From: Eshraghiella crossota
Lineage (GTDB): Bacteria; Bacillota; Clostridia; Christensenellales; CAG-917
Length of the DNA stretch: 64,000 bases
NCBI GenBank assembly: GCA_963590075.1
Contig: CAVANK010000004.1
Span: 18,670-82,669, forward strand
Direction: 5' to 3'
In this document: piece by piece, positions 190-56,899 of the stretch
Layout: each line of letters opens with the position of its first letter
How positions within the stretch are numbered: the stretch's first letter is position 1
Program-made: the position numbers and the translations under genes
The notes under the pieces: model-generated
Databases searched by the model: none
Told to the model about the DNA's origin: nothing
The model's input: the letters and a program-made list of their open reading frames with translations, nothing else

Positions 190-296
190 GGAATATTCCG
201 CAACTCGCACAAAGTGCGAATATCACTGCGACAAAGTCGCAATATCACTTTTGGCTTTTGCCAAAAATATCACTGTTGCGTAGCAACAATATCACT
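190..296 (+). repeat. family-A hairpin array, copy A1 (GGAATATTCC head, then 4 x [short hairpin + AATATCACT])
   Basis: Hairpins TCGCAC-AAA-GTGCGA, GCGAC-AAA-GTCGC, TTGGC-TTTT-GCCAA, GTTGC-GTA-GCAAC, each followed by (A)ATATCACT. Confidence 0.85.
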
Positions 297-4695: not shown

Positions 4696-4961
4696 AACGC
4701 ACTAAATAGCGCCTAACTTTGTCAGCGTCCCGAGTTTCGCAAATCACGTACGTTTATGTACGTTGGGTTTGCGCTCCTCGGGGCGCTTTCTCGTTATGCA
4801 TCTATTTATTGCGTTTTAGTTGTGCTCGTAACGTTAGGGTTGCTGTGCAAGGGGCTTTTCCGCGCTCTTCATCCGTTTAGAGGCTCTTAATCGCGTTCGT
4901 GAATTTTAGCATCTATTTATCGCGTTTTATTCACATTCGTGATAAATGGTGATTTCAAAAA
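4693..4961 (+). repeat. family-E multi-hairpin element, copy E1, starting at the stop codon of the phosphoesterase gene
   Basis: TAAAACGCACTAAATAGCGCCTAAC..; outer stem GCGTCCCGAG/CTCGGGGCGC; inner CGCAAA-TC-ACGTAC-GTTTAT-GTACGT-TGG-GTTTGCG; CATCTATTTAT(T/C)GCGTTTTA occurs twice. Confidence 0.8.
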
Positions 4962-5064
4962 CTCCACAACTGCGCCTACGGCGCAATATCACTTTTTGCG
5001 CAAGCAAAAAATATCACTCTTGCTTCGCAAGAATATCACTTGCGCCTACGGCGCAAATATCACT
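4962..5064 (+). repeat. family-A hairpin array, copy A2
   Basis: CTCCACAAC head, then TGCGCC-TAC-GGCGCA, TTTTGC-GCAA-GCAAAA, CTTGC-TTC-GCAAG, TGCGCC-TAC-GGCGCA, each followed by (A)ATATCACT. Confidence 0.85.
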
Positions 5065-9509: not shown

Positions 9510-9548
9510 AACGATTAATTTTTTAATGGCAAATATCCAATAAATTTT

Positions 9549-9648
9549 TCCACAACTCGCACGAAGTGCGAATATCACTTTTGGCGCAAGACAAAAATAT
9601 CACTCTCGCATAGCGAGAATATCACTTGCGCACAGCGCAAATATCACT
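9549..9648 (+). repeat. family-A hairpin array, copy A3
   Basis: TCCACAAC head, then TCGCAC-GAA-GTGCGA, TTTTG-GCGCAAGA-CAAAA, CTCGC-ATA-GCGAG, TGCGC-ACA-GCGCA. ATATCACT at 9572, 9597, 9619 and 9641. Confidence 0.85.
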
Positions 9649-19958: not shown

Positions 19959-20085
19959 AAAAATACACGTTTTTCACGCCAAAAATACACGTTTTTACAG
20001 CAAATGCCTATGCGGTTTTACAGCAAATGCCCATGCGGTTTTACAGTAAAGCACACACTGTTTTACGGTAAAAGCGCACGAGTCT
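19959..20085 (+). repeat. degenerate 22-23-bp periodic repeat (TTTT(T)AC(A/G)G units) between purA and its terminator
   Basis: AAAAATACACGTTTTT x2. TTTTACAGCAAATGCC(T/C)ATGCGG x2, then TTTTACAGTAAAGC and TTTTACGGTAAAAGC. Unit starts at 19971, 19993, 20016, 20039 and 20061. Confidence 0.7.
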
Positions 20086-29915: not shown

Positions 29916-29929
29916 TAAGACAAAAACAA

Positions 29930-29967
29930 AAAAGTCGCACACTCGAAAAGGGTGTGCGATTTTTTTG
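29930..29967. terminator. bidirectional terminator (ferredoxin gene on plus, XRE gene plus array on minus)
   Basis: A-run, TCGCACAC-loop-GTGTGCGA, T7. Confidence 0.8.
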
Positions 29968-29974
29968 TTTTTGT

Positions 29975-30084
29975 AGTGATATTTGCCGTTGGCAAGTGAT
30001 ATTGCGACTTTGTCGCAGTGATATTTTTGGCTTGCGCCAAAAGTGATATTCGCACTGTGTGCGAGTTATGGAAGGCGGAGCCTT
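29975..30084 (-). repeat. family-A hairpin array, copy A4 (reverse orientation), preceded on the minus strand by an AAGGCNNNGCCTT hairpin
   Basis: 4 x AGTGATAT on the plus strand, separated by TTGCC-GTT-GGCAA, GCGAC-TTT-GTCGC, TTTTGGC-TTGC-GCCAAAA, TCGCAC-TGT-GTGCGA. Then GTTATGG and GGAAGGCGGAGCCTT. Confidence 0.85.
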
Positions 30085-30101
30085 ATCCGATATTTTTTTG
30101 T

Positions 30102-30317
30102 TTAATCGTGTTCTTTGCCGATTAGATAATCAATACTTACGTCAAAAAATTCGGCAATTTTCCAACAATCGAGAACGTTGGGCACGATTATACCCGCTTC
30201 CCAACGGGAAATGTTTGCCTGCGTCGTGCCGACAAGTTGGGCAAGTTGCCCTTGCGAAAGGTCTTTTTCCAATCTCAATTCTTTTATTCTGTTGCTCTTA
30301 AAATCCAATGTAGTCAT
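30102..30317 (-). CDS. XRE-family HTH transcriptional regulator (short, Cro/CI-like)
   Basis: LRLEKDLSQGQLAQLVGTTQANISRWEAG. Start taken at MTTLDFKS. The track ORF extends to 30362 but would run through the operator/promoter region. Confidence 0.8.
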   Translation of the reverse strand: MTTLDFKSNRIKELRLEKDLSQGQLAQLVGTTQANISRWEAGIIVPNVLDCWKIAEFFDVSIDYLIGKEHD

Positions 30318-30326
30318 ACCACAATG

Positions 30327-30370
30327 ATACAAATTTGCATATTTTTGTATTGACATATACAAATTTGTAT
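30327..30370. promoter_or_regulatory. two palindromic operator sites with an embedded TTGACA in the divergent XRE/DUF898 control region
   Basis: ATACAAATTTGCAT (30327-30340) and the perfect palindrome ATACAAATTTGTAT (30357-30370), 30 bp centre to centre. TTGACA at 30350-30355. Confidence 0.7.
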
Positions 30371-30411
30371 GAGATTATTATGATAAATTATGTATTATAG
30401 GGGGTATTTTT

Positions 30412-31839
30412 ATGAGCAAAAAGACGCATTGTCCGTCTTGCGGTGCAATTATCGAGATCGATGAAAGCCGAGAACGCTTGCATTGCGACGGTTGCGGCAA
30501 AAATTACAAAAATCCGTATTACAAAGAAATAAAAGTCGTTGAAAACGGCAGTGAAGAGCAAGAGTCGGCAGTTGCGCCGACAAATGTTGATACAAATGTC
30601 GACGAAAAGACGAACGATAACATCAATGTCAACGAAAACAAAGTCCAAAGCGAAGTGAGCGTATCGTGCGATATCGTTGCACATAGTGAACCTGTCGAGG
30701 AAAAAACAGACGATATCGACGAAGAAAAATTGGCAAAAGTCAAGAAAAAACTTACAAAATCAACCATTGCAATGTTGGTGCTGTCAAGTATATTTATGTT
30801 GTATGCTATTGCAGTGCTCGCAATGAATTTGTATTTTTCAGGTTTAAGAGCGGATGTGTTTAAGAATGCAACAGAGTGTGTCTTTTTGATTTTTGTTTTG
30901 ACGATTTGCATTATTGCCAGTGCTGTATTATGTAAAAATCGCAAAGTAATAGACCAAAAGAGTGTGACGTGTTTAATCATCATACTGGTTTCGGTTTGTT
31001 TAATAGAAATTGAAAACATAGTGTCGACGAGTGTTGGCGTTGTCGGTTTGCTAAAAGATCCACGATATGGGCCTTCATCACTTTTTTCTACTTTTGTAAT
31101 AAATACTATTATAAGTTCGCCGATTATTGCATTGATTGTTTTAAGTGCGGTGAATTTGAAGAATATCAAGCCGTTTATTCCCAAGTACGTTGTGTCGGCG
31201 CATCTTGACGGACACAGTGAGTTCACCGCGGGGCTTTTTAGTTTGATTTGGCTCAATTTCGTCAACATCCTCATAAAAACATTTACACTCGGTTTGTGCA
31301 CGCCTTGGGCGGTGCGCAGAGAGTATACTTGGCTATACGAGCACCAAGTGATAGACGATAGAAAACTTGTGTTTGACGGAACCGCCGCAAGTCTGTTCGG
31401 ACAATGGGTGAAGTGGTCGTTGCTTTCCGTTGTCACGCTGGGCATATACACGCTTTTTGTGCCGATAAAGAAAATGCAATGGATAACGAAGAATACGCAT
31501 ATAAAAGACGTCGTTATCGATACGCAAGAAAATAAGAGTAAGTTTGACGGCAAATTCTGGTCTTATTGGGGAATGAGGTTGGTAAACGGACTTATTATAG
31601 TCTTTTCTCTCGGCTTTTGTACACCGTGGGCAATCGTAAGAGAACAGCGTTGGTTTACCGAACATCAAATATTTGACGGACAACGCCTTGCGTTTGACGG
31701 CAGTGCTATGGGACTATTCGGACAATGGATAAAATGGATGTTGTTGAGCATAATCACTCTTGGCATTTATGCTTGGTGGATACCGATTAAAAAGCAAAAG
31801 TGGATAACGGAGCATACACACTTTTCAATTAATGCATAA
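30412..31839 (+). CDS. zinc-ribbon membrane protein with two YjgN/DUF898-like repeats
   Basis: N-terminal CPSCGAIIEID..LHCDGCGKNY, an acidic linker and multiple TM helices. Two repeats of the pattern F(T/S)LG(L/F)CTPWA(V/I)(R)RE..W..EH(Q)..D(D/G)(R/Q)(K/R)L.FDG(T/S)A..LFGQW(V/I)KW.LLS..TLGIY. Visibly more AT-rich than the flanks. Confidence 0.65.
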   Translation: MSKKTHCPSCGAIIEIDESRERLHCDGCGKNYKNPYYKEIKVVENGSEEQESAVAPTNVDTNVDEKTNDNINVNENKVQSEVSVSCDIVAHSEPVEEKTDDIDEEKLAKVKKKLTKSTIAMLVLSSIFMLYAIAVLAMNLYFSGLRADVFKNATECVFLIFVLTICIIASAVLCKNRKVIDQKSVTCLIIILVSVCLIEIENIVSTSVGVVGLLKDPRYGPSSLFSTFVINTIISSPIIALIVLSAVNLKNIKPFIPKYVVSAHLDGHSEFTAGLFSLIWLNFVNILIKTFTLGLCTPWAVRREYTWLYEHQVIDDRKLVFDGTAASLFGQWVKWSLLSVVTLGIYTLFVPIKKMQWITKNTHIKDVVIDTQENKSKFDGKFWSYWGMRLVNGLIIVFSLGFCTPWAIVREQRWFTEHQIFDGQRLAFDGSAMGLFGQWIKWMLLSIITLGIYAWWIPIKKQKWITEHTHFSINA

Positions 31840-31840
31840 G

Positions 31841-31876
31841 AAAAAGTCACACAATCAAGCGATTGTGTGATTTTCT
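31841..31876. terminator. bidirectional terminator
   Basis: AAAAAG-TCACACAATC-AAGC-GATTGTGTGA-TTTTC. Confidence 0.8.
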
Positions 31877-31889
31877 TTGTAGCGAAAGC

Positions 31890-32145
31890 GGAATATTCCA
31901 TTAGCGCAATTTATTGCGCCTAACGTTACTCGTAGACAGGCGGAGCCGTAGTTTATAACTCCACGAAAAGTTGTTGTGAGCATCAACTTTGTATCCGAGC
32001 AACCGCCGAGCCGTCTCAAGGTTGTGAGACCTTACGCACAAAAGCAATGCTCCGATTGCTTTTGTGTAGGACGTTTGCGCCTAAATATGTGTCAAGTTAT
32101 CTCGTAGAGATAAGTGACACGTGTTTAGCATTCGGCGCAAAGATG
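31890..32145 (-). repeat. family-D 256-bp multi-hairpin element, copy D1 (inverted relative to D2)
   Basis: About 93% identical by eye to the reverse complement of 56645-56899. Bounded by GGAATATTCC at one end and a stop codon at the other. Internal hairpins include CACAAAAGCAATG/CATTGCTTTTGTG and TGTCAAGTTATCTC/GAGATAAGTGACA. Confidence 0.9.
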
Positions 32146-32325
32146 TTATAAATCATCAACGTCCTGCACGGGTTTTTCGCCGTCGGGGACGTCGGGATAG
32201 CCCTCTCTTTCGGGTACGCCCGTCCAACTGCCGTTGGGATCGAAATGCGAACGCATATTTTCGTGATTTGTAAGGTTGCTGTGAGAGAGCGGGGGTTGAT
32301 ACTTTCTTTTTCTTCTAATTTTCAT
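32146..32325 (-). CDS. small basic/acidic hypothetical protein (59 aa)
   Basis: GAGGAAA RBS before MKIRRKRKYQPPLSHSNL...; acidic C-terminus PVQDVDDL. The track ORF adds 6 upstream codons. Confidence 0.45.
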   Translation of the reverse strand: MKIRRKRKYQPPLSHSNLTNHENMRSHFDPNGSWTGVPEREGYPDVPDGEKPVQDVDDL

Positions 32326-38674: not shown

Positions 38675-38750
38675 GGGGATATAGCTCAGTTGGTAGAGCG
38701 CCTGATTTGCATTCAGGAGGTCCTCGGTTCGAATCCGTGTATCTCCACCA
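38675..38750 (+). tRNA. tRNA-Ala (anticodon UGC), CCA encoded
   Basis: Manual cloverleaf. Acceptor GGGGATA/TATCTCC with G3:U70. Anticodon arm CCTGA-TTTGCAT-TCAGG. T-loop TTCGAAT. One U:U mismatch in the T stem (CTCGG/CCGTG). Confidence 0.8.
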
Positions 38751-39028
38751 CAGGTGAAAATACCCGCATTCCGTTGCGGGCGCGCAACGCATCACTTTGT
38801 GATGCAACCGAGGACAAGTCCTCGCTGACGCTCGCTTCGATATGCAAGCACAAGCGCTCGCTATTTTACGAATCCGTGTATCTCCACCACAGGTGAAAAT
38901 ACCCGCATTCCGTTGCGGGCGCGCAACGCATCACTTTGTGATGCAACCGAGGACAAGTCCTCGCTGACGCTCGCTTCGATATGCAAGCACAAGCGCTCGC
39001 TATTTTACGAATCCGTGTATCTCCACCA
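38751..39028 (+). repeat. two identical tandem 139-bp units, each ending with a 21-bp copy of the tRNA-Ala 3' end
   Basis: CGAATCCGTGTATCTCCACCA at 38730-38750 (in the tRNA), 38869-38889 and 39008-39028. The units are 38751-38889 and 38890-39028. Confidence 0.9.
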
Positions 39029-39034
39029 CACCGA

Positions 39035-39111
39035 TGGATTGTAGCTCAGTAGGTTAGAGCACCACCCTGATAAGGTGGGGGTCGGTGGTTCGAGTCCACT
39101 CAATCCAACCA
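39035..39111 (+). tRNA. tRNA-Ile (anticodon GAU), CCA encoded
   Basis: Manual cloverleaf. Acceptor TGGATTG/CAATCCA (U1:A72). Anticodon arm CCACC-CTGATAA-GGTGG. T arm GGTGG-TTCGAGT-CCACT. Confidence 0.8.
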
Positions 39112-43084: not shown

Positions 43085-44452
43085 ATGGCAAACAATAAAT
43101 CTACAAAAAAATCAAAATCAACCAAGTCTTCGACATCGACAAATTCGTCCAAGTCCAAGCAAACGCAAACGAGCACCGTAGAAAAAGCGGTGAAAAAGGC
43201 GTATAAGAAAAACCCCAAAGCGGTTATTATATCCATAGTTGCGGTTGTGCTTGTTATTGCAATCGCGGCGGCGGTGCTGTACTTCGGCTTCCCCGATATT
43301 TGGAAGCAAATTATGTCGGGCTTTGGCAACGGCAACGACAATAGTGGCAGTATTGACGCAGAGGACACAAGCAAAGTCGTGGGCGGTAATCTGCAAGGCG
43401 TTCTCACAAGAGGCGACGGCGAACTGTTGTTCCATATGATAGACGTCGGACAAGGGGATTGTTTGTATATACAACTTCCCGACGGAAAAGATATGATTAT
43501 CGACGGCGGTACCACAAAGAAACCGTATGACGATTTTGACGAAAACACCGTGATAAATTATTTGAATAACTACGTCAAAGACGGCACGATAGAGTATCTT
43601 ATGCTTACGCACACCGACAAAGACCACGTGAGCATCATAGACGACATTATCGATGCGTTTGACGTCCAAAACATCTATATGCCATATATTTTGGCAACGC
43701 CCGACGTTACAAAACTGTCGAGCGCCGTGCGCACCGAGTTTGAAAGTATTCCGCAAGAGAAAAAGGATATTTTCAAGGATAAAGACACTGTTTCCACCGC
43801 GGAATATGCCGAGTTCTTCGCCGCCGCGTTGAATGAGGAAGACTGCAATATTTTCGTCAATATGGATGACGACGAAAACACAAACAATATCAAGATAAAC
43901 GGTAGCGATTACACGTTCAAATTCTATTGCCCGACAAAGGCATATTATGATGGAAACGGATTGGACAATGCAACCGACTTGAATGCAATTTCTCCCGTCG
44001 GTATTCTGGAATACAAGAGCAGAAGAATTATGTTTACGGGGGATAGCAACACTAAGAACGAAAAGATTATTCCCAACCGCACGGGTGCAATCGATTGCGA
44101 CGTTCTGAAAGTCGCACATCACGGAAGCGCAACATCTTCGACAGCCGATTTTTTGGAAAAATACGATTTTGAGTATGCAATGATAAGCAGTGGTACGCAC
44201 GCCGGACACAAACTTCCTCGACAAGACGCTCTTGACAGAATGAAAGATATGGAAGTGTATCGCACGGATAAAAACGGCACAATCGTATTGTCTGTAAACA
44301 AAAGCGGAGAAATGTTGTTCAGAGCAGAGAAGAAGAGCACTCAAAAACAAAACCATATCGGCAACGACGTACAAATGACGACACAATCGGCGTTGTCGAA
44401 AAAATCCGTTCCGACCAACCTTCGCGGATTGTTCTTTATCAATGCGGCATAA
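43085..44452 (+). CDS. membrane-anchored MBL-fold hydrolase related to the ComEC/Rec2 beta-lactamase domain
   Basis: HMIDVGQGDC, LTHTDKDH (HxHxDH) and KVAHHGS motifs. K/S/T-rich N-terminus and one TM helix. Confidence 0.8.
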   Translation: MANNKSTKKSKSTKSSTSTNSSKSKQTQTSTVEKAVKKAYKKNPKAVIISIVAVVLVIAIAAAVLYFGFPDIWKQIMSGFGNGNDNSGSIDAEDTSKVVGGNLQGVLTRGDGELLFHMIDVGQGDCLYIQLPDGKDMIIDGGTTKKPYDDFDENTVINYLNNYVKDGTIEYLMLTHTDKDHVSIIDDIIDAFDVQNIYMPYILATPDVTKLSSAVRTEFESIPQEKKDIFKDKDTVSTAEYAEFFAAALNEEDCNIFVNMDDDENTNNIKINGSDYTFKFYCPTKAYYDGNGLDNATDLNAISPVGILEYKSRRIMFTGDSNTKNEKIIPNRTGAIDCDVLKVAHHGSATSSTADFLEKYDFEYAMISSGTHAGHKLPRQDALDRMKDMEVYRTDKNGTIVLSVNKSGEMLFRAEKKSTQKQNHIGNDVQMTTQSALSKKSVPTNLRGLFFINAA

Positions 44453-44481
44453 GTAAAAGACACGCAATTGCGTGGCTTTTT

Positions 44482-44586
44482 AGTGATATTGCACCGTAGG
44501 TGCAGTGATATTCTCGCAAAGCGAGAGTGATATTGTTGCTATCGCAACAGTGATATTCGCACTTTGTGCGAGTTGTGGAATATTCC
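44482..44586 (-). repeat. family-A hairpin array, copy A5 (reverse orientation), ending in GGAATATTCC
   Basis: 4 x AGTGATAT with TGCACC-GTA-GGTGCA, CTCGC-AAA-GCGAG, GTTGC-TATC-GCAAC, TCGCAC-TTT-GTGCGA. Then GTTGTGGAATATTCC. Confidence 0.85.
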
Positions 44587-44923
44587 ATATTTCGCTACGC
44601 TGGATTCCCACGGTCACTTCGTTCTCTCTGAATGACAGTCGGTGGGACACCCACACCCGATTAATTTCTCCTTACGTCATTGCGCCAATGTCGAGTGAGG
44701 AAACTTGCTTGCAAGGGTTTCCGAACGATGATATTTTTGGAGTGATTGCATTTACAGTTATGCAAATGTAGCCGTAGGCTTGCGCTGTCAGCGCACAATC
44801 ACCGTGGAACGCAAGCGTGGCAATCTATGCGTTAGCCGCTCAAACCAAGCAAGCGATATAGCGAAACCGTAGTAGGTTTTTTATCCTTGCTTTAAATGAT
44901 AGCGTGTATCGGTTGCGCGGTAG
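44587..44923 (+). repeat. family-C arm, left copy (inverted relative to 46802-47147)
   Basis: ATATTTCGCTACGCTGGATTCCCACG ... GCGCCAATGTCGAGTGAGGAAACTTGCTTGCAAGGGTTTCCGAACGATGATATTTTTGGAGTGATTG ... GCGCGGTAG. The reverse complement is present in the right arm. Confidence 0.85.
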
Positions 44924-44996
44924 TAGTTGCGAGGACAAATGCGGTTTATGGCAACAAATGCATTTGTTGCCATCACCGCGATGCCGTTTGAGCAAC

Positions 44997-45570
44997 TGGC
45001 TGTGCGGTAGAGAGACTAAAATTTATTGCAATAAAAGAAAGACACGCAAATGAAAATGCGTGTCTTTCGTAAGCTTGCAATAAAATAAAGGTAATAAACA
45101 TCATAGATTGAATAAAGAGCGAGAAAAAGCCCCTTGGGCGACAACCCTCACCTAAAAAGGAACGGAAAAACACCAAACAGACAATCTTGCGAAACTGTGG
45201 CAGGAGTTTTTGTCCGTGCTTGAACCGATAGCAAAAGATTGGCTGTGCGGTAGAGAGACTAAAATTTATTGCAATAAAAGAAAGACACGCAAATGAAAAT
45301 GCGTGTCTTTCGTAAGCTTGCAATAAAATAAAGGTAATAAACATCATAGATTGAATAAAGAGCGAGAAAAAGCCCCTTGGGCGACAACCCTCACCTAAAA
45401 AGGAACGGAAAAACACCAAACAGACAATCTTGCGAAACTGTGGCAGGAGTTTTTGTCCGTGCTTGAACCGATAGCAAAAGATTGGCTGTGCGGTAGAGAG
45501 ACTAAAATTTATTGCAATAAAAGAAAGACACGCAAATGAAAATGCGTGTCTTTCGTAAGCTTGCAATAAA
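44997..45570 (-). repeat. 243-bp tandem repeat, ~2.4 copies, each carrying a copy of the rpsR terminator
   Basis: TGGCTGTGCGGTAGAGAGAC at 44997, 45240 and 45483. Units look near-identical by eye. Confidence 0.9.
45523..45554 (-). terminator. rho-independent terminator of rpsF-ssb-rpsR (further copies at 45280-45311 and 45037-45068)
   Basis: GAAAGACACGCA-AATGAAAA-TGCGTGTCTTTC with a T-run on the minus strand. Confidence 0.85.
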
Positions 45571-46522: not shown

Positions 46523-46801
46523 ACTTTTTTTACCTCCTTTTGGTCTTGTGTCCCTTGCGGGAAAGGAATATGCATCTCTTTGATGCCTTGTTATAATATA
46601 TTAAATATTTATATTTGTAAAGCAAATAAACCAAAAATGGCGCGGAATTAATTATTTAACGGGGCGGAATTAATAATTATGAATAAGCAATTAATAATTA
46701 ATAATTGAGGGTGGGACACCCACACCCGAGCAAAAGTCGTCGCTGTGGCAAAGACAACTCACAAGTTCATTGTCTACTGCCACGCTAGTCTTATTGCTCT
46801 G

Positions 46802-47147
46802 CTACCGCGCAATCGATACACGCTATCAGTATAGTAAGGATAAAAACTCCCGCCACAGTTTCGCTATATCACTTGCTTGGTTTTTGCGGCTAACGCCTAG
46901 ATTGCCACGCTTGCGCTCCACGGTGATTGTGCGCTGACAGCGCAAGCCTACGGCTTTTATTTGCATAAATGCAAATTCAATCACTCCAAAAATATCATCG
47001 TTCGGAAACCCTTGCAAGCAAGTTTCCTCACTCGACATTGGCGCAATGACGATATGGTGGGACACCCACACCCGATTTACATTTCTCCTTATGTCATTCC
47101 GAGGAGCAACGAATGTTGCAACGTGGGAATCCAGCGTAGCGAAATAT
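46802..47147 (-). repeat. family-C arm, right copy
   Basis: Reverse complement of the left arm, except that the ~40-bp AATGAC...GTCATT core (47045-47098) keeps plus-strand orientation. Confidence 0.85.
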
Positions 47148-47381
47148 CGAATAAGGCTTCGCCTTCCAAAATTATTAATTATTAATTATTAATTATTAAT
47201 TTACGGGTGGGACACCCACACCCGAATGAATAATTGTTCTTGCTATTCAACCCACCCGCTTTATGTTGTTTTAAGAAATTCTTTATTTTTTATTTAGACC
47301 TTTTTTATTGCGCGGTTGTATTATAATAGCGTCGTTAGGATAACGGCAGTATATCGTGGAAAACAACAAGGAGAAATAAAA

Positions 47382-55234: not shown

Positions 55235-56644
55235 ATGAAAAATCAAAACGATGAAAAGAAAAACACACAAGAACAAGAGGGCAAAAAGCCCAAGAAGCAC
55301 GCTCCCGCAAAAGTCGTAAAAACCGCCGTTCTCGGCACGGTGCTCGGACTTTTTGCGAGCGCGATAGTGGGGCTTTCGGTTGCGCTGTACTTTTCTCAAA
55401 AGAGCGTGCAAACGCACGAAACCTATCAAAGACAAATGGACGCGGTGTACTCCCGCGCGTACTACGATTTGCTTGACGGTGCAAGCGACCTCGGCATACG
55501 GTTGCGCAAGATAAGCGTGTCCAACTCACCCAAAATGCAACAATCGCTTTTGTACGAGGTGTGGGGAACGGCGCAACTTGCGGAGGACAATCTCGGCATG
55601 TTCGAGTCGCAAGACGACGGAATTCTCAAAGCGCAAAAATTCGTCAATCAACTGGGCGATTACACGCATTCGCTTGCGCTCCGCATATCCGACGGACACC
55701 CGCTGACGGCGGAAGACAGACACAAATTGCAACAGATGGGAGATATGGCGGACACCTATAAAAACGCCTTGCAATCCGTGCAAAAGAACCTCGATAACGG
55801 GCAAATGTTCGTTGAGGACGGCGGTGCGCTCGATAATTTTGCTTCGGCATTTTCGGAGTTTTCCGAGCCGAGCTTCGAGTATCCCGAAATGATTTACGAC
55901 GGACCTTTTTCTTCCGCACTTGAAAATAGGCAAACGTACGGCCTTACGGGAGCGGAAATAACCGTCGAAAGAGGTGAAGAAATAGTGAAAGAATTGTTTG
56001 AGGAATATAGACCTCGCAATATCGAATACGCGGGGCAGGCGGACGGTGATATCGTGACGCTCGATTATAGATTTGTAAGCGGCGACGATAGGTGCTATGT
56101 GCAAATCGCAAAAAAAGGCGGTATGCTCATATCCTTTAACACGTCACCCGTAAACGACGAGAACGTCGCAATCGTCGAAGCAAGCGAAACTTGCCAACAA
56201 AGCGCGTTGAGATTTGCCTCGCGCGTAGGATTTGAAAATATGCAAGTGGTGTGGTCGTCCTCGGCGGACGGTGAGTGCGTTATAAACCTTGCGCCCGTGC
56301 ATAACGACGCAATACTTTATCCCGACCTCGTCAAGGTCAAGGTGAGAGAGGACGATTTGCGCGTTATCGGCTTTGACTCAACGCACTATGCATTCAACCA
56401 CCGTGAGCGTACTCTCGACGAGCCGACTATATCCGCGGCGGACGCACAATCGACGCTTTCCGTCCAACCGATATCCGAAGGTCGTCTTGCGCTTATCCCT
56501 TTGCGTGAAACAAGGGAAGTATTGACCTACGAGTTCGAGTGCCACAGCGACGGCACGTACTACGTGTATATCGACGCGCAAAGCGGTGAAGAAGTGAATA
56601 TTTTGTACGTGGTATCCGACGATACGGGTATGAGAACGATGTAA
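55235..56644 (+). CDS. ypeB: germination protein YpeB
   Basis: 469 aa directly after sleB. N-terminal TM helix. YpeB-like length with PepSY-type C-terminal repeats. Confidence 0.8.
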   Translation: MKNQNDEKKNTQEQEGKKPKKHAPAKVVKTAVLGTVLGLFASAIVGLSVALYFSQKSVQTHETYQRQMDAVYSRAYYDLLDGASDLGIRLRKISVSNSPKMQQSLLYEVWGTAQLAEDNLGMFESQDDGILKAQKFVNQLGDYTHSLALRISDGHPLTAEDRHKLQQMGDMADTYKNALQSVQKNLDNGQMFVEDGGALDNFASAFSEFSEPSFEYPEMIYDGPFSSALENRQTYGLTGAEITVERGEEIVKELFEEYRPRNIEYAGQADGDIVTLDYRFVSGDDRCYVQIAKKGGMLISFNTSPVNDENVAIVEASETCQQSALRFASRVGFENMQVVWSSSADGECVINLAPVHNDAILYPDLVKVKVREDDLRVIGFDSTHYAFNHRERTLDEPTISAADAQSTLSVQPISEGRLALIPLRETREVLTYEFECHSDGTYYVYIDAQSGEEVNILYVVSDDTGMRTM

Positions 56645-56899
56645 AATCTTTGCGCCGATTGCTAAACACGTGTCACTTATCTCTACGAGATAACTTGACA
56701 CATATTTAGGCGCAAACGTCCTACACAAAAGCAATCGGAGCATTGCTTTTGTGCGTAAGGTCTCGCAACCTTGAGACGGCTCGGCGGTTGCTCGGATAGA
56801 AAGTTGATGCTCACAATTAGTCTTCGTGGAGTTATATTCTACGGCTCCGCCTGTCTACGAGTAACGTTAGGCGTGCGTTGCACGCTGATGGAATATTCC
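56645..56899 (+). repeat. family-D 255-bp multi-hairpin element, copy D2, starting directly after the ypeB stop codon
   Basis: See D1. Ends in GGAATATTCC (56890-56899). Confidence 0.9.

Follow-up and report, generated by a model that had tools for sequence, protein, structure and literature searches.

We analyzed a 64,000-nucleotide stretch of DNA from Eshraghiella crossota (assembly GCA_963590075.1, contig CAVANK010000004.1, positions 18,670 to 82,669, forward strand; hereafter, the window), which carries five copies of an intergenic repeat that we call family A. Each copy is a block of approximately 100 bp consisting of a head (TCCACAAC), a first hairpin usually of the form TCGCAC-N3-GTGCGA, and three further mini-hairpins strung on the linker AATATCACT. 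Judged by their sequences, these arrays are the one-armed form of the Gut-1 family, which is known from the Gut-1 RNA motif (Rfam RF01706). Our preferred reading, to which we give a probability of roughly 45%, is that family A is a mosaic repeat akin to the repetitive extragenic palindromic (REP) sequences and bacterial interspersed mosaic elements (BIMEs), recognized as a folded single strand by a putative factor. Whole blocks have been copied between intergenic sites that are unrelated, congeneric genomes differ in whether they carry a given copy, other modules adjoin the head side in mosaics, and most blocks lie at the ends of genes, few between divergent genes; in these ways family A behaves like extragenic repeats of the REP/BIME type. 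Overall, REP/BIME-like mosaic repeat is a better description of the Gut-1 family than small RNA (sRNA) gene, and family A is not a new kind of element.

The motif ATATCACT occurs 23 times in the window, whereas 100 dinucleotide-preserving shuffles gave 1.09 occurrences on average and never more than 4. Twenty of these copies make up five arrays of exactly four, at a spacing of 20 to 25 bp. Every segment between motifs in all five arrays is a mini-hairpin with a stem of 5 to 7 bp and a loop of 3 to 4 nt, counting the closing pair between the final T of a motif and the A that precedes the following motif, which encloses 4 to 6 further pairs. An earlier note, made from the sequence alone, had described five copies at these places, each with four motif-linked hairpins, and the sequence confirms this description; the positions it gave hold, except that homology to an array in a congeneric genome (L177, described below) sets the mobile block of copy 3 at 9548-9648. 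The five arrays are as follows.

190 to 296, plus strand: copy 1, with head GGAATATTCCGCAAC followed by TCGCAC-AAA-GTGCGA, then units GCGAC/GTCGC, TTTGGC/GCCAAA, and GTTGC/GCAAC, with (A)ATATCACT after each unit.
4964 to 5064, plus strand: copy 2, with head CCACAAC and units TGCGCC/GGCGCA, TTTTGC/GCAAAA, CTTGC/GCAAG, and TGCGCC/GGCGCA.
9548 to 9648, plus strand: copy 3, a block of 101 bp that starts at TTCCACAAC and ends with the final ATATCACT, between malQ and dapB.
29975 to 30071, minus strand: copy 4, with head CCATAAC and units TCGCAC-ACA-GTGCGA, TTTGGC/GCCAAA, GCGAC/GTCGC, and TGCC/GGCA.
44482 to 44586, minus strand: copy 5, with head GGAATATTCCACAAC and units TCGCAC-AAA-GTGCGA, GTTGC/GCAAC, CTCGC/GCGAG, and GCACC/GGTGC.

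Copy 2 is flanked by a metallophosphoesterase gene and a HAD hydrolase gene, and unit 2 of copy 3 contains a single G-A mismatch (TTTGGC..GACAAA). Copy 5 is predicted to fold into four hairpins plus a palindrome in the head, with z = -5.7 under RNA parameters and -6.7 under DNA parameters.

Approximately 190 fetched loci yielded 528 non-redundant units, representing 329 distinct sequences. We scored covariation on equal-length single units because MAFFT alignment of whole arrays shifts copies by one unit. Perfect hairpins account for 474 of the 528 units (90%), and 86% of the units have at least five uninterrupted Watson-Crick pairs, compared to 1.1% after shuffling. Among the 103 distinct 14-nt units, 97.6% of cells are paired versus 63.9% in shuffles, a level that none of 500 shuffles reaches, and pairing drops to 29 to 48% when the 3' partner is slid out of register. 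All four Watson-Crick types are seen at four of the six stem pairs in this set, with the innermost pair being C-G in 96 units and the outermost T-A in 101. These pairing values show that the covarying stems reported in the earlier note are real; its statement that stems differ completely between copies does not hold, given that a shared repertoire (TTTGGC, TTTTGC, CTCGC, GCGAC, GTTGC, TGCGC, GCACC, TGCC, and others) recurs in varied order, its members connected to one another by single compensated changes. What the hairpins conserve is the fold, not the stem sequence. Mispairs over the 528 units comprise 20 G-T, 11 A-C, and 38 others beside 3183 Watson-Crick pairs, and G-U occupies 11 of 618 cells (1.8%) in the 103-unit set. 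G-U is as rare as other mismatches, which fits a DNA-level or templated origin of the pairing.

The linker, which had been called invariant, is constant to near-invariance: in arrays found via the head alone, where the search did not require the linker, the exact sequence is present at motif 2 in 95%, at motif 3 in 86%, and at motif 4 in 82%, and ATAT is invariant. The loops distinguish the two strands. Read on the ATATCACT strand, 77 of 176 four-nucleotide loops are GNRA and none is of the reverse-complement type. Triloops, which are as common as tetraloops, are likewise skewed (GAA 43 versus TTC 4; GTA 30 versus TAC 5), with GAA, GTA, GCA, and AAA far commoner than TTC, TAC, and TTT. This asymmetry bears out the earlier suggestion of a strand-specific element: the relevant strand is the ATATCACT strand, on which the loops are GNRA or GNA closed by C-G. 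Mini-hairpins of the C(GNA)G and C(GNRA)G types are unusually stable in DNA, as the literature on d(GCGAAGC) describes.

Family A had at first been taken for an unrecognized family. The RF01706 covariance model (gathering cut-off, 50 bits) matches copies 2 to 5 at E-values of 1e-6 to 2e-5, scoring 50.3 bits for copy 3, 49.2 for copy 4, 45.3 for copy 2, and 44.0 for copy 5, so that copy 3 alone reaches the gathering score; no match to copy 1 was reported at E-values up to 0.5. All four matches fall on the strand opposite ATATCACT (minus for copies 2 and 3, plus for copies 4 and 5). The model alignment includes at least three short hairpins with covarying stems joined by GUGAWAU, and the Gut-1 linker AGUGAUAU is the reverse complement of ATATCACT. 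Gut-1 was described from 43 metagenomic examples, all from the human gut, and filed as a candidate sRNA ("Gene; sRNA") of unknown function (Weinberg et al. 2010, PMC2864571; Rfam RF01706); our literature search turned up no subsequent paper about the motif. Read from left to right, the published seed (PMC2864571) shows a gene or transfer RNA (tRNA), a terminator-like hairpin, AGUUAUAU-UCGCC, and three hairpins joined by AGUGAUAU, and it continues beyond the annotated motif with GGCGAAUAUA and then AUAUCACU-hairpin units. The seed sequences are thus a two-armed form of the same element, and Gut-1 is the left arm of a larger two-armed element.

Among relatives of the window arrays, the two-armed layout "----++++" is dominant (24 full cases and many partial ones), and "++++----" never occurs. 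RF01706 matches in relatives are mostly on the left arm; the model also scores the opposite strand of the right arm (L005) and separate one-armed arrays (L024 and L100). The start of the left arm, TT[A/C/T]TATTCGCC, pairs across approximately 80 nt with the center of the element, GGCGAATA[T/G/A]AA, forming an 11-bp long-range stem that covaries in three states. The variable pair is A-T in 28 cases, T-A in 16, and C-G in 16; the exceptions are three wobble pairs, and no pair is incompatible. By homology, TCGCAC-N3-GTGCGA plus ATATCACT in the window arrays corresponds to this long-range stem closed on a triloop and is followed by the right arm. This correspondence explains why the Gut-1 model matches the opposite strand of the window arrays, and it yields four motifs in both forms. 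We also considered a promoter at the center of the two-armed element, where -10-like sequences (TATAAT, TAGAAT, TAAAAT) occur but no -35 lies at 16 to 18 bp. The variable base of the -10-like sequences covaries with the left-arm start, so pairing explains the sequence better than a promoter does, and we rejected this candidate.

A separate observation concerns metagenome-assembled genomes (MAGs) of Acutalibacteraceae (L007, L015, L018, L024, L074, and L114), in which a conserved promoter-like and ribosome-binding stretch lies to the right of the right arm. It reads TTGCAC, 17 nt, TATACT or TATAAT, ..AGGCGGTGA.., and ATG, and it precedes unrelated small open reading frames (ORFs) for membrane proteins or lipoproteins; L074 has two such right-arm-plus-promoter-like units within 3 kb. 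The stretch resembles a portable module for expression or the edge of a cassette region.

Evidence that the block moves as a unit comes from comparisons among loci. Copy 3 (9548-9648) is 100% identical to the array of L177, with unrelated flanks on both sides, and the homology ends exactly at TTCCACAAC and at the last ATATCACT; several further array pairs are 93 to 97% identical and have unrelated flanks. A congeneric locus, L157, is 88 to 93% identical to the window across 21 kb of synteny and lacks copies 1 to 3. The malQ-dapB spacer contains no array in L157, L158, or L159, and an array is present there in L217. These presence/absence comparisons rest on congeneric genomes, the closest relatives on record being 93% identical, and exact-sequence searches with the MalQ and DapB of the window gave no match. 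Rearrangement has gone too far in the intergenic stretches of the window, L157, L158, and L217 for a target site to be defined. We considered an autonomous element with arms 1 to 3 kb apart and rejected it: the arrays of L106, 2.2 kb apart, enclose a transporter-like gene and a serpin gene and no transposase.

Array flanks are conserved on the tail side and not on the head side, where different repeat modules join the same array head. Compared to L202 and L206, the window contains an extra approximately 2 kb (30073-32147) exactly at the head of copy 4, carrying genes for an 86-aa HTH_3/XRE protein and a DUF898 membrane protein as well as a 261-bp repeat. The features that adjoin copies 4 and 5 in the window are as follows.

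29921 to 29973, no strand assigned: bidirectional intrinsic terminator, read from the sequence as an A-tract, a TCGCACAC..GTGTGCGA hairpin, and a T-tract.
44454 to 44481, no strand assigned: terminator-like hairpin CCACGCAATTGCGTG, with A and T runs on its flanks.
44581 to 44926, minus strand: a module of a different repeat, attached to the head of copy 5 and containing GTGGGAATC and GGGTGTGGGTGTCCCACC.

The module at 44581-44926 has a second, inverted copy at 46799-47153 that lacks an array, the pair being approximately 350 bp long and 84% identical; GGGTGTGGGTGTCCCACC has four copies in the window, at 44642, 46711, 47057, and 47207. Modules akin to this one precede array heads in many related loci, and the module belongs to the mosaic rather than to the array proper.

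Once in place, the arrays change in a characteristic way. Overall, flanks are 79 to 97% identical between the orthologous contigs that we compared. In four orthologous array pairs with flanks 79 to 91% identical, there are no changes in 144 linker nucleotides, and about 20 of 52 loop positions have drifted (hand count). Orthologous stems change by compensated doubles, or whole units are swapped. Copy 1 is identical in L210, and in L217 it shows the compensatory change GCGAC/GTCGC to GCGCC/GGCGC; unit 3 of copy 2 has changed in L217 from CTTGC/GCAAG to CTCGC/GCGAG, also compensatory. Copy 4 is 99% identical in L202, and its units 3 and 4 are replaced in L206.

We examined gene context in 55 de-replicated loci of the window lineage, using hexamer-trained gene calls. 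The arrays are in tandem sense orientation in 16 loci, tandem antisense in 12 (p = 0.57), convergent in 13, divergent in 5, and unclassified in 9. Divergent spacers are under-represented, with 6 of the 64 classified cases among 79 arrays before de-replication versus a background of approximately 20%. The median distance to a gene boundary is 37 bp at the tail and 250 bp at the head, and arrays also lie 15 to 60 nt upstream of start codons or ribosome-binding sites. In the window, the head faces the co-oriented upstream gene in four or all five copies, as the earlier note observed; across the 55 loci, the split of 16 sense to 12 antisense shows no such bias, which argues against a purely 3'-untranslated-region element. 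Two-armed elements follow a co-oriented gene, tRNA, or transfer-messenger RNA (tmRNA) in 40 of 48 cases, 22 to 140 bp downstream, as counted with gene calls from a simpler ORF caller, and they begin just after the strong terminators of tRNA genes.

Some copies do lie between a stop codon and a terminator, as had been proposed, namely copy 4 and its orthologue in L202. Copy 4 is located 3' of the stop codon of the 86-aa HTH_3 (XRE) gene (30102-30362, minus strand), and the terminator at 29921-29973 abuts its tail between convergent genes and is kept with the array in L202 and L206; the order in L202 is upstream stop codon, 45 nt, array, terminator. The hairpin at 44454-44481 separates the tail of copy 5 from the stop of a convergent metallo-beta-lactamase-fold gene (43085-44452). 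Copies 4 and 5 are the only ones in the window with an abutting terminator, in both at the tail end. On the AGTGATAT strand, a consensus scan also shows that units before the TTTGGC/TTTTGC unit resemble intrinsic terminators (9601-9621, 5015-5059, and 271-291, all minus), each with a stem of 9 to 10 pairs, G-T pairs included, followed by ATATTTTTG.

A pattern scan of one genome per species found at least 118 loci in genome contigs. Among the matches listed, nearly all are uncultured gut Clostridia MAGs, two being plain tandem repeats from other phyla; the carriers include Acutalibacteraceae, Oscillospiraceae, Faecousia, "Christensenella sp." UBA767 and UBA7571, and Ornithomonoglobus. Scanning metagenomes for the window-type head gave 73 loci, many of them from single assemblies, and from the head-type metagenome loci we obtained 79 non-redundant arrays at 55 distinct loci. 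Exactly four motifs are present in 63 of the 79 non-redundant arrays and in 51 of 73 arrays found via the head alone. Of 38 matches in viral contigs, 37 are plain tandem repeats and a single one (L121) is a true element, and annotated phages and plasmids yielded no array match; we therefore rejected a phage or plasmid origin.

If family A is a REP/BIME-like repeat, a putative trans-acting protein would read the single-stranded linker between hairpins, with four sites per arm, and the pairing would be kept by selection on the fold or by intrastrand templated correction. We lean toward a folded strand that matters first as DNA, in copying or replication, with RNA-level side effects, because the arrays are oriented at random with respect to transcription and their mini-hairpins do not tolerate G-U. 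DNA also fits the equal folding of the two strands under DNA parameters, the triloops as common as tetraloops, closure by C(GNA)G as in highly stable mini-hairpins of DNA, the copy-and-paste behavior of the block, and the purine-rich loops, which lie on opposite strands in the two arms of two-armed elements. In favor of RNA, the RNA fold is more stable on the Gut-1 strand, as the linker ends there contribute U-G, A-U, and U-G pairs. A transcribed array may additionally form a string of stable hairpins at the end of a messenger RNA (mRNA) or between cistrons.

Several observations weigh against this interpretation. No direct repeat indicating target-site duplication flanks copy 3 or the identical copy in L177. 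The ends of the one-armed block differ (TTCCACAAC versus ATATCACT) and it has no terminal inverted repeats, so it does not have the form of a miniature inverted-repeat transposable element (MITE). Our screens of the fetched loci found no mobilizing enzyme. At orthologous loci the linker is perfectly conserved and the stems are compensated, which points to a function in place rather than to decaying selfish copies. GNRA loops suit RNA too, and exceptions in the long-range stem of two-armed relatives, read on the Gut-1 strand, are G-U in nine cases versus A-C in one, which favors RNA, as does the placement of these relatives after a co-oriented gene. The GC skew on the ATATCACT strand is negative at 39 arrays and positive at 22 (weak; not de-replicated), and perfect units number 45 of 46 in sense arrays versus 24 of 28 in antisense arrays (not significant). 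Finally, RAYT-like genes in two loci (L235 and L236) are accompanied by REP hairpins of another type, GTAG, such as GTAGGGGCGAACTGTGTTCGCCC and GTAGGGGAGACCTTTGGTCTCCC.

The search for a RAYT partner, which the earlier note had suggested, used phmmer on all ORFs of the fetched loci with two probe sequences. One RAYT-like ORF was found in an array-bearing MAG locus (L050, 3-467); it scores 61.5 bits against NF047646, for which the cut-off is 80, and has no Pfam match. These two probes detected no RAYT-like ORF in the other approximately 1.4 Mb of fetched loci. The RAYT-like family is common in gut metagenomes, and in five RAYT-like loci (L050 and L234 to L237) no ATATCACT array is adjacent to the gene, on which ground we rejected RAYT as the mobilizing enzyme. 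Two further observations concern these genes: one GTAG-type REP sequence lies within the L050 RAYT-like ORF, and RAYT-like genes of gut Clostridia carry the JGI name "REP element-mobilizing transposase RayT."

The strongest rival explanation, which we consider possible although somewhat unlikely, is a cis-acting structured RNA. The array would be co-transcribed on the ATATCACT strand and would serve as a 3'-end or intercistronic barrier to exonucleases, as a stabilizer, or as a platform offering four sites to an RNA-binding protein that recognizes AAUAUCACU. The restriction of GNRA tetraloops to the ATATCACT strand suits such a role, as do the linker kept and stems compensated in place and the exactly four motifs in 51 of 73 to 63 of 79 arrays, but triloops are as common as tetraloops, and G-U is no more frequent than other mismatches. 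Many arrays are in transcribed positions (as in L202, or shortly before start codons and ribosome-binding sites), and sense arrays are slightly more intact, but orientation in the window lineage is random (16 versus 12 loci). The two-armed relatives contribute evidence on both sides. Their 11-bp stem covaries in three states with wobble exceptions only, and they follow a co-oriented gene, tRNA, or tmRNA in most cases. Against this, no single transcript of a two-armed element would have favorable loops in both arms, because the arms carry purine-rich loops on opposite strands, and these elements begin just after strong tRNA-gene terminators. No promoter is evident, five copies per 64 kb are unlike a dedicated sRNA gene, and copy number, mosaic structure, and random orientation together argue against one.

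A more far-reaching proposal, which we regard as doubtful, is that the arrays are not junk but platforms maintained by the host. Ultra-stable mini-hairpins of the C(GNA)G or C(GNRA)G type would expose four AAUAUCACU (or AATATCACT) sites in single-stranded form between them, to be read by a putative multimeric or four-domain protein of gut Clostridia. If true, gene boundaries would carry a new kind of cis element, one that might, for example, control the ends of mRNAs or single-stranded DNA associated with replication, and the "Gut-1 sRNA" would be one face of that platform.

Quite unlikely, in our estimation, is a mutational by-product, in which intrastrand template switching (quasipalindrome correction), acting as a tandem short repeat is replicated, forms the palindromes and keeps them perfectly paired, and both pairing and array are functionless. 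This process would account for near-perfect Watson-Crick stems in which G-T is no commoner than other mismatches, for double "compensatory" changes at orthologous sites, and for the fast divergence of the loops. It leaves unexplained a linker that is near-invariant across family-level divergence, the fixed number of four motifs, the strand-asymmetric GNRA/GNA loops with constant C-G closure, the covarying long-range stem of two-armed relatives, and the copying of whole arrays to unrelated loci. Least probable of all, and very improbable in our judgment, is an iteron- or nucleoid-protein-like array in which a protein binds AATATCACT boxes as double-stranded DNA approximately two helical turns apart (compare IHF and gyrase on Escherichia coli BIMEs): it would suit a fixed set of four boxes at 20- to 25-bp spacing that are conserved in place and are positioned independently of orientation at gene ends and in convergent spacers, but a duplex binder gives no reason for covarying hairpins between boxes, strand-asymmetric loops and the long-range stem are unaccounted for, and stems of 5 to 7 bp are probably too short for ready cruciform extrusion.

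The window also contains other repeats. The 261-bp repeat mentioned above forms an inverted pair (31890-32148 and 56642-56899, 92.7% identity), is 96% identical in L110 (Christensenella sp. UBA7571), and belongs to a family distinct from the arrays. A shared intergenic repeat with an internal hairpin, AACTTTGTCAGC...CACGTAC..GTACGT.., lies at 1-100 and 4700-4810, upstream of copies 1 and 2, and is also present in the array-free L157. The stretch at 44997-45570 is perfectly duplicated in tandem at a 243-bp period (44997-45327 and 45240-45570, 100% identical); the 197-aa ORF at 44973-45566 (minus strand) does not pass a hexamer test for coding sequence and is unlikely to be a gene. A second tandem duplication, at 38730-39030 (38730-38891 and 38869-39030, 100% identical), falls between the tRNA genes at 38675-38747 and 39035-39108. 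At 19992-20060 there are three to four tandem copies of a 23-bp unit, TTTTACAGCAAATGCC.ATGCGG, unrelated to the arrays.

Gut-1 has been listed in Rfam since 2010 as an orphan "sRNA" known from gut metagenomes alone. Our analysis recasts it as one arm of a larger element whose family is found widely among uncultured Clostridia (Acutalibacteraceae, Oscillospiraceae, and Christensenella-like MAGs). The element is multi-copy, mosaic, and copied between loci, and its linker and fold are kept in place while its stems are free to change, which reverses the usual REP pattern of sequence-conserved stems. If a binding factor exists, it would provide a tractable entry to lineage-specific nucleic-acid handling in abundant uncultured gut bacteria; if there is none, the arrays would offer a clean example from nature of how palindromes are maintained, and would caution against taking covariation by itself as proof of an RNA gene. 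The arrays are useful as strain markers and are a likely cause of assembly breaks in the MAGs that carry them.

We compared family A with known repeat systems. CIRCE elements, DnaA boxes, anti-Shine-Dalgarno sequences, and rut sites were considered and dropped as weak resemblances or of the wrong geometry. Clustered regularly interspaced short palindromic repeats (CRISPR) resemble the arrays in the regular alternation of constant and variable segments. Unlike CRISPR, in which repeats of 23 to 50 nt alternate with unique spacers, the arrays have a constant part of only 8 to 9 nt, variable parts that are self-complementary and drawn from a small shared repertoire, and four units per array with many arrays per genome; the window contains no leader or cas context, and its flanking genes are housekeeping genes. 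The BOX elements of Streptococcus pneumoniae (boxA-boxB(n)-boxC) and other modular Firmicute repeats share with family A a head module combined with a variable set of short repeated units, intergenic placement, stable hairpins when transcribed, and a mobilizing activity that is unknown. Their modules are sequence-conserved, without the pattern of constant linker and covarying stems, and no sequence similarity is expected.

The REP sequences of Proteobacteria, with BIMEs and REPINs and their RAYT (Y1 HUH) transposases, are similar to family A in being extragenic, palindromic, high in copy number, and lineage-specific, and in lying at gene ends and in convergent spacers. Both occur in mosaic clusters, as inverted doublets (here, the two-armed relatives) and as singlets (here, the five arrays in 64 kb), and both are copied as whole units without target duplications. 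They differ in that REPs are imperfect, conserved palindromes of 20 to 40 nt, whereas the arrays consist of perfect mini-hairpins of 13 to 17 nt with variable stems; the arrays conserve a 9-nt linker rather than a 5' GTAG, which they lack, and their two arms are not mutually complementary. Gut-1 itself shares the covarying short hairpins, the GUGAWAU linker (the reverse complement of ATWTCAC), and a distribution confined to human and animal gut Clostridia. The Rfam model covers three left-arm hairpins after a terminator and is filed as an sRNA gene, whereas the window copies are one-armed and take the form of a multi-copy mosaic repeat present five times in 64 kb.

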